The position numbers and the translations under genes were made by a program. DNA of 64,000 bases from Eledone cirrhosa (lineage: Eukaryota): positions 4,836,001 through 4,900,000 of the forward strand of contig OZ024753.1 in the NCBI GenBank assembly GCA_964016885.1, written 5' to 3'. This document shows, piece by piece, positions 11,704-13,109 of the stretch (position 1 is its first letter; the number at the start of each line of letters is the position of its first letter). Under the pieces are notes generated by a model. It worked only from the letters and a program-made list of their open reading frames with translations, made no database searches and was not told the origin of the DNA.

Positions 11704-11738
11704 AAATTACAATCAAAGTTATGTTCAAATCATTTTAT

Positions 11739-11785
11739 TGCTGACAATCGTTTCTTCCAAACTTTCGTTTGGATTCATCGGAGCA
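11739..11785 (-). ncRNA. Hammerhead ribozyme, left arm of palindrome
   Basis: Minus strand TGCT-CCGATGA-A-TCCAAAC-GAAA-GTTTGGA-A-GAAA-C-GATT-GTC-AGCA, then AATAAA; U4C core variant. Confidence 0.65.
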
Positions 11786-12754
11786 TTAGCAACTGAACAA
11801 TCATATAGATACATATATATTGATGTTGTGAACAACAGTTTCGTATTTACAGGGTGTAATGGATGCGGCATATATTATACGAGAATTGTACAATAATTCA
11901 AATTAAAGTTAAAAGCACAGAGTGGAATACATGCGACAGATAATACAAGAGAATAGTCTAATAATTAAAGAGGCATTGAGAAAGAATGAGGACACTAGCA
12001 GTACATATGCAAGCGTGTAGAGAGTGCACATGCGTTAGTCATATATATCAGAAGGAAACAAGCAAAGGTATTGGTCATATATAATAATGTATGGCAAAGG
12101 TATCACATAAAAAGCAAATGTGTTAGTGTATTAAAATTTACGGTGAATGTAATGTGATGATAGTTTCTGTAGTGCTCAAATTTGTATGTGTTGAGAGTAT
12201 CAAAGTTATTGTTTTCTTTTCCATTACATATGTTAAATTATATTTTAGAATATAATTTAACATATGTAATGGAAAAGAAAACAATAACTTTGATACTCTC
12301 AACACATACAAATTTGAACACTACAGAAACTATCATCACATTACATTCACCGTAAATTTTAATACACTAACACATTTGCTTAATATGCTTATATTTTATG
12401 TGATACCTTTGCCATACAGTATTTATATTTGCCTAATACCTTTGCTAGTTTCCTTCTCATATATATATGACTAAGGCATGTGCACTTTCTACACACTTGC
12501 ATATGTACTGCTAGTGTCCTCATTCTTTCTCAATGTCTCTTTAATTATTAGACTATTCTCTTGTATTATCTGTCGCATGTATTCCACTCTGTGCTTTTAA
12601 CTTTAATTTGAATTATTGTACAATTCCCGTATAATATATGTCGTATCCATTAGACCCCGTAAATACGAAACTGTTGTTCACAACATCAATATATATGTAT
12701 CGACATGATTGTTCAGTTGAATAGGAGGTTAATTATATGTACAAATATTTCTAA

Positions 12755-12801
12755 TGCTCCGATGATTCAAAACGAAAGTTTGGAAGAAACGATTGTCAGC
12801 A
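12755..12801 (+). ncRNA. Hammerhead ribozyme, right arm of palindrome
   Basis: TGCT-CCGATGA-TTCAAAAC-GAAA-GTTTGGAA-GAAA-C-GATT-GTC-AGCA; predicted cleavage after C12797; AATAAA at 12801-12806. Confidence 0.65.
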
Positions 12802-13109
12802 ATAAAATGATTTAAACATAACTTTGATAATTCTGTAATTTATATTCCTGCTTTGTAAAACACCTGATGTTCTTACATTGAGCTATTTCTCTTATTGGTA
12901 ATAAGGTAGTAATAAATTACTGACCTTTCCTGTTTATAGTTGTTTATAGTATATACATAACTATAAATAGCATCATTATATATATATATATATATATATA
13001 TATATATATATATACAGAGAGAGGGGGTGGGAGGGAGAAAGAAAGTTGGAGAGAAACAGGGAGAGAGAAAGAGATAGATAGATAGATACACTACGTTTAT
13101 ATACACACA

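Follow-up and report, generated by a model that had tools for sequence, protein, structure and literature searches.

The 1.1-kb palindrome analyzed here, from the genome of Eledone cirrhosa, consists of two head-to-head, 5'-truncated copies derived from the 3' part of a repeat that is abundant and dispersed. It was probably produced when a Penelope-like or Penelope-mobilised element retrotransposed once into an (AT)n(AG)n microsatellite; fold-back of the new strand and separate decay of the two arms followed. The window was the whole stretch of 64,000 nt (OZ024753.1, positions 4,836,001-4,900,000, assembly GCA_964016885.1), and all coordinates are positions in it. It is AT-rich, microsatellite-rich animal DNA with one run of 200 N.

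First, the geometry of the palindrome was determined. A BLAST self-match of the window placed the inverted repeat at 11704-12841, with its centre at 12246/12247, and so bore out the palindrome that an earlier, sequence-only reading of this DNA had described. The two arms were identical in 521 of 543 aligned columns, with 22 mismatches. An alternative split gave 520 of 542 identical columns, and the 2-nt gap that it leaves at the centre is a product of the split point. Five indels were found between the arms, with the right arm having 13, 1, 2, 31, and 5 nt extra, and the left arm lacked both the last ~130 nt of the repeat and the three internal stretches of 13, 31, and 5 nt. The arms adjoin at 12246/12247, but the term "spacer-less" used in that reading does not hold strictly, as the centre was closed by a 4-nt loop in RNAfold. 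Transcript from either strand was folded by RNAfold into one long hairpin with a minimum free energy (MFE) of about -820 kcal/mol and 526-531 pairs. The sequence-only reading had thus been right about the palindrome and its motifs, but it had omitted the U4C core, the ~130-nt extension, the indels, and the flanking compound microsatellites. The features are collected in Table 1.

Table 1. Features of the palindromic unit, its flanks, and a dispersed repeat of the window
Feature	Position	Strand	Remark
Left flank, (AT)n(AG)n compound microsatellite	11608..11703	+	
Left arm	11704..12246	-	3' part of the repeat, 5'-truncated and inverted
Mirror AATAAA	11734-11739	-	left-arm counterpart of 12801..12806
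Mirror hammerhead motif, left arm	11739..11785	-	helix II mismatch 11774; predicted cut after 11743 (minus strand)
Fold-back centre	12245..12248	.	4-nt loop; truncation point of longer element
Right arm	12247..12841	+	direct 5'-truncated copy; portion mirrored by left arm
31-nt family stretch	12720..12750	+	kept in right arm, deleted from left arm
Minimal type I hammerhead motif, right arm	12755..12801	+	core U4C; mismatch in helix II at 12769; cut predicted after C12797
AATAAA hexamer	12801..12806	+	overlaps 3' strand of helix I
One-sided 3' extension, ~130 nt	12842..12972	+	continuous with arm in other copies
Hairpin at the element's 3' end	12930..12970	+	-14.2 kcal/mol, z -5.0, 0/200 shuffles
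Right flank, (AT)n AC (AG)4, left-flank orientation	12978..13023	+	possible target-site duplication
Dispersed 110-150 nt repeat copies	14715-14897, 19856-20121, 22372-22481, 27205-27422, 41103-41225, 59160-59286		

The family to which the arms belong was investigated using contigs of those four (X1-X4) among seven listed public runs that contain part of the stretch examined; the four came from one study with at most two samples and were placed at 80% likeness. These runs contain 7-25% of the words of that stretch and may represent another species or population. About 2,450-2,600 contigs per deep run were placed over 1,269 bases. The depth in X1, summed over the arms, was 2,815 at 12247-12306 and 1,711 at 12367-12426, and it was 19,078 at 12547-12606, 67,163 at 12787-12846, and 173,785 at 12847-12906. 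The profiles of X3 and X4 had the same shape. Summed contig depth, which is not equal to copy number, was minimal near the centre and ~25-fold higher at the ribozyme. From these data the arm corresponds to the 3' part of a dispersed repeat of high abundance, and because depth climbs from the centre to the 3' end, the pattern is that of 5' truncation. Since single contig pieces had a depth of 3-58, this gradient indicates a large family in which most copies are 5'-truncated or the upstream part is less conserved. Six X3 contigs ran beyond 12248 into other sequence as loose ends. Because these contigs continue upstream, the centre is a break or truncation point in a longer element.

At the other end, contig pieces 12721-12922, 12715-12903, 12801-12953, and 12823-12969, with 10-20% other letters, extended from the arm into the ~130 nt beyond it. 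These nucleotides therefore belong to the repeat unit, as diverged contigs bridge arm and extension. Contig loose ends at 12970 led into TAT repeats, and the related loose ends at 12922 and 12936 were also able to pair (judged by eye), as does the terminal hairpin. Two X4 contigs ended at 12845 in an AT repeat, near the end point of the left arm, and this hints weakly at a family with two natural 3' ends. The summed depth over 12865-12950 was 3-8 times that of the ribozyme, with a jump at 12865, and because of this jump the 3' extension may be common to another, more abundant repeat.

Next, the arms were compared with the contigs. The 13-, 31-, and 5-nt stretches occurred in contigs, and the 31-nt deletion was further supported by contig loose ends behind 11792 (16 contigs in X1 and 18 in X2). 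Because the contigs carry these three stretches, they were lost from the left arm rather than gained by the right. The comparison of letters covered 20 distinct positions from the 40 rows listed (184 further). Three of these positions were changed in the left arm only and 10 in the right arm only, three were common to both arms against the contig majority, three had no partner, and one was an alignment artefact at a TA slip. Changes specific to each arm show independent decay of the arms and argue against an artefactual fold-back read. At 12601, 12652, and 12751 both arms shared a letter absent from 77-99% of the contig depth, which points to a single source of both arms. Mismatches were fewer next to the centre (1 of 132 columns) than elsewhere (20 of 408; P = 0.036, with the boundary chosen afterwards), and the higher identity there may reflect later exchange between the arms. 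Compound repeats of the (AT)n(AG)n type were found five times in the window (both strands), and two of them adjoin this unit. In the simple reading the two flanks would be a duplicated target, the length of which is unreadable within the microsatellite.

The contig joints showed that other family copies also invert, at other places. Among the 15 joints listed of 40, each with one contig per run behind it, at least six ran antisense then sense as at this locus, each at a different pair of positions (12775/12737, 12752/12770, 12653/12293, 12605/12873, 12536/12689, and 12494/12945). A seventh inverted joint was at 12784/12935. The remaining listed joints comprised one repeat of the first joint, one same-sense skip, and six short skips. 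Two joints had a shorter side of less than 30 nt, and none was symmetric to the degree of this locus. No centre-spanning sequence was present among the 32 contig pieces listed (7,655 further) in the four public runs; as a contig crossing the centre would have little length and reveal no joint, the contig tables are uninformative on the presence of the centre in these runs.

Each arm carries, facing outward, the motif TGCT-CCGATGA-helix II-GAAAC-GATT-GTC-AGCA-ATAAA. Its core begins at 12759 (+) and 11781 (-), and the motif lies ~170-215 nt from the element's 3' end. Helix I has 4 bp, helix II has 7-8 bp with a GAAA loop, and helix III is self-complementary; the helix III stretch pairs with a second copy of itself in a duplex of -5.8 kcal/mol. 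All three helices are present, and in both arms the whole core is unchanged, as are helices I and III. The different single helix II mismatch that had been noted in each arm was confirmed at 11774 and 12769, and the consensus of the two arms agreed with the contigs, in which C at 12769 was backed by 15210 of 15312 of the summed depth in X1. The cut site that had been placed after C12797 is at the correct position, with GTC at 12795-12797. In comparison with the consensus CUGANGA / GAAA / UH, every position of the core CCGAUGA and its partners matched except U4C.

In the search for hammerhead ribozymes that the sequence-only reading had proposed, a strict descriptor, composed after the motif had been seen, found both sites and nothing else in the window, and it had 0 matches in 200 Markov control windows on both strands. 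Rfam reported no hammerhead family at E<=10 on 12700-12970, and none among the 150 of 189 rows listed for the whole window. A relaxed descriptor gave seven sites in the window, five of them outside the palindrome. One other decayed hammerhead motif is probably present at ~6545-6590 (-), where a hammerhead-like core has a short GC helix II and GAAAC-GTC, with helix I unpaired.

The letters CCGA recurred in contig loose ends and joint letters of all four runs, and U4C is therefore not private damage of the locus. Loose ends behind 12749 (X1, X2, and X3) showed a sister family with the same helix I and CCGA core, differing by A at position 7 and another helix II. Judged from these letters, the U4C core seems to span several families in the host organism. 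A scan of metagenomes for the U4C motif gave six loci, none with hammerhead helices II and III (by eye and by fold), and these were taken as chance. According to PMC3088659, the U4C change reduces activity in vitro but can still sustain a viroid in vivo. The hammerhead-constrained fold of each monomer was predicted to lie ~5 kcal/mol above the free fold, and in the modelled full transcript the helix I bases pair with the opposite arm; together with the MFE given above, this agrees with the earlier expectation that the long hairpin would compete with ribozyme folding. Single minimal motifs did not cleave alone in the experiments described in the available text of two papers (PMC4209133; PMC11167929). 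A longer distal helix I, for which 12 of the 14 pairs listed are possible in the right arm, was rejected, as 363 of 2000 shuffles paired equally well.

The sequence-only reading had also assigned a poly(A) signal to each arm, and this assignment was dropped. AATAAA occurs in the window at 1.9 per kb of strand; here it begins 4 nt past the predicted cut site, overlapping helix I, and a poly(A) tract was seen at neither end of the palindromic unit.

The coding potential of the arm and the parentage of the family were then considered. Pfam gave 0 families in six read-through frames of the arm, including no GIY-YIG. The 72-aa open frame had 0 matches among 1.84 billion proteins, and the 61-aa read-through had no protein match. 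As no reverse transcriptase or endonuclease is tied to the family, its membership in the Penelope-like elements is likely only. The motif proportions and the published layout support the tie to Penelope-like pseudo-LTR hammerheads and inverted duplications that had been drawn before. A GIY-YIG open frame after a cysteine cluster was found at 52769-53383 (-), with PF01541 at E 0.027, below the cut-off, and an Atlas feature score of 0.97 to eukaryotic GIY-YIG clusters. A hammerhead-like motif with a U3-A8 core (by eye) follows ~400 nt downstream, at ~52320-52372 (-). Frame and motif together probably mark the 3' end of another Penelope-like element, which we take to be Nematis-like. Because it combines GIY-YIG with a hammerhead-like motif on the same strand, this second element was counted for the Penelope reading of the palindrome, and its GIY-YIG frame resembled the arm in neither DNA nor protein. 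Immediately upstream of the frame, at 53560-53835, there is a direct repeat of 140 nt.

In the history that we propose, an abundant Penelope-like (or Penelope-mobilised) RNA would have inserted once into an (AT)n(AG)n microsatellite. Copying by reverse transcriptase would have started near the element's 3' end (~12972) and halted after ~725 nt. By fold-back or a template switch, the new strand would then have served as its own template and yielded a head-to-head inverted copy that stopped ~130 nt short of the first copy. The outward hammerhead pair would be a single pseudo-LTR hammerhead copied twice, the arms have decayed separately since the insertion, and the locus would presumably be without function. 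It is rather unlikely that the family is also an undescribed Penelope-type family with a U4C-fixed slow hammerhead and 3' ends ~130 nt apart, the outer one at the conserved hairpin, whose loci give ~500-bp edited or diced hairpins that restrain thousands of copies. If this were true, each fold-back insertion would record two reverse-transcription start sites.

Other histories were weighed against the same data. The same fold-back could have had a non-Penelope parent, such as a retrozyme-type or LINE-driven hammerhead repeat, and this would agree with the failure to find a parent protein and with an extension that exceeds the Penelope tail and ends in a strong hairpin. However, both a tandem array and a poly(A) tail are absent, and the hammerhead proportions are those of the Penelope minimal type, not of the canonical 6 bp / 4 bp retrozyme type in the available text of PMC4209133. 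Animal retrozymes are in any case derived from Penelope pseudo-LTRs, according to the accessible part of 10.64898/2026.07.22.740005, and such a parent seems quite unlikely. A Helitron-type end, prompted by the terminal hairpin, was set aside, as the depth gradient and the hammerhead suit a retroelement better. It is very unlikely that a single 5'-truncated copy came first and that its inverted arm was added later by a host template switch during replication or repair. The indel ends look templated and identity is higher near the centre, as expected from host processing of a palindrome, and the window contains other short fold-backs (6125-6242, 16223-16503, and 63282-63427). However, the inverted arm lies wholly within the element with no flank copied, other family copies have inverted joints, and head-to-head copies are described as typical of Penelope-like insertions in the parts of PMC3846280 and PMC8557442 available.

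The sequence-only reading had raised the idea of a dedicated non-autonomous fold-back retroelement, which moves as a palindrome and whose RNA ends are set by self-cleavage or polyadenylation. Both arms do retain the full core with helices I and III unchanged, and the contig tables are compatible with a few copies having the same centre. This proposal did not survive the family data, in which depth is minimal at the centre and ~25 times greater at the ribozyme, and the family extends past the centre and inverts at other places. Within the locus, each arm has a helix II mismatch, 22 substitutions and five indels separate the arms, the ribozyme bases pair with the other arm in the full transcript, and the poly(A) tract is absent; we now consider such an element highly improbable. 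Hardly any weight is given to an assembly or amplification artefact, whether by a fold-back chimera or by the joining of two copies. In its favour, the centre and the whole stretch are crossed by no read or listed contig, but a fold-back read should have near-identical arms, whereas these differ by 4% and by 13- and 31-nt indels. Arm-specific changes against the contig majorities occur on both sides (3 left only and 10 right only, in 20 rows), and the flanks differ and fit a duplicated target. One retrotransposition of a Penelope-like or Penelope-mobilised element, with fold-back, is therefore the reading that we retain.

Five more fold-backs or inverted repeats, 57-280 nt long and in some cases almost perfect, are present in the window: the three short ones named above and those at 15998-16120 and 19840-19896. 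The one at 6125-6242 has a T run at its left end and an A-rich right end, resembling a head-to-head retroelement stub. The dispersed repeat of 110-150 nt occurs on both strands, with copies 85-99% alike, and presumably resembles an octopus SINE. A tandem array at 8287-9014 has 13 copies of a 56-nt unit that are 97-98% alike.

Finally, the locus was compared with known systems, as far as these are described in the available parts of the papers cited. EN+ Penelope-like insertions have an adjacent inverted 5'-truncated copy, a 30-40 nt tail at one end, and microsatellites as targets (Craig et al. 2021, PMC8557442), and palindromes at their head-to-head junctions were read as self-priming (Arkhipova et al. 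2013, PMC3846280). The locus is like such a unit in its head-to-head truncated copies, junction palindrome, one-sided extension, and putative microsatellite target (PMC8557442, PMC3846280). However, its extension is ~130 nt in comparison with 30-40 nt (PMC8557442, PMC11167929), it has no recognized coding part, and its arms are near equal in length. In PMC11167929 the tail was tied to two internal start sites, and the ribozyme was protein-assisted and dispensable for insertion in vitro.

Dual minimal hammerheads on opposite strands, 100-700 bp apart, were described in Schistosoma in the part of Cervera and de la Pena (2014, PMC4209133) available. The motifs of the locus are like the metazoan Penelope-like minimal hammerheads of that paper in being type I, with a helix II of 7-8 bp, a helix I of 4 bp, and a self-complementary helix III. 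In contrast, they lie ~980 nt apart and have C at position 4 (U4C), while the main text of PMC4209133, in the part available, names the U3-A8 variant only. Its supplementary alignments, or host repeat libraries, may already contain the family or the U4C variant. No description of the family was found in the literature searched, a scope with most subscription papers and repeat databases outside it.

In rearranged copies of Drosophila Penelope, siRNAs map to long inverted repeats, according to the accessible text of PMC3681739. The suggestion of the sequence-only reading that such a hairpin may be a source of siRNA or an ADAR substrate thus has a published precedent in Drosophila, while a functional hairpin RNA found no support at this locus. 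The locus is similar in having inverted repeats capable of giving double-stranded RNA, but it is old and decayed and is known here from DNA alone; only evidence that its hairpin RNA is produced and processed would raise its importance. Non-LTR retrozymes (bioRxiv 10.64898/2026.07.22.740005, available part) are also non-coding, with a type I hammerhead and a proposed origin from Penelope pseudo-LTRs. These are head-to-tail tandems, whereas the copies at the locus stand head to head and belong to a 5'-truncated family. The arm has no direct repeat in the window, and hence no head-to-tail hammerhead tandem was found.

In comparison with these systems the locus is ordinary, one more fossil of a published insertion pattern. 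It departs from the textbook case in its U4C core and in a 130-nt extension that ends in a hairpin. The known range would be slightly widened by a U4C core common to the whole family and by a long one-sided extension, and near-symmetric fold-backs with a 4-nt loop provide material on how Penelope-like elements build the inverted copy.
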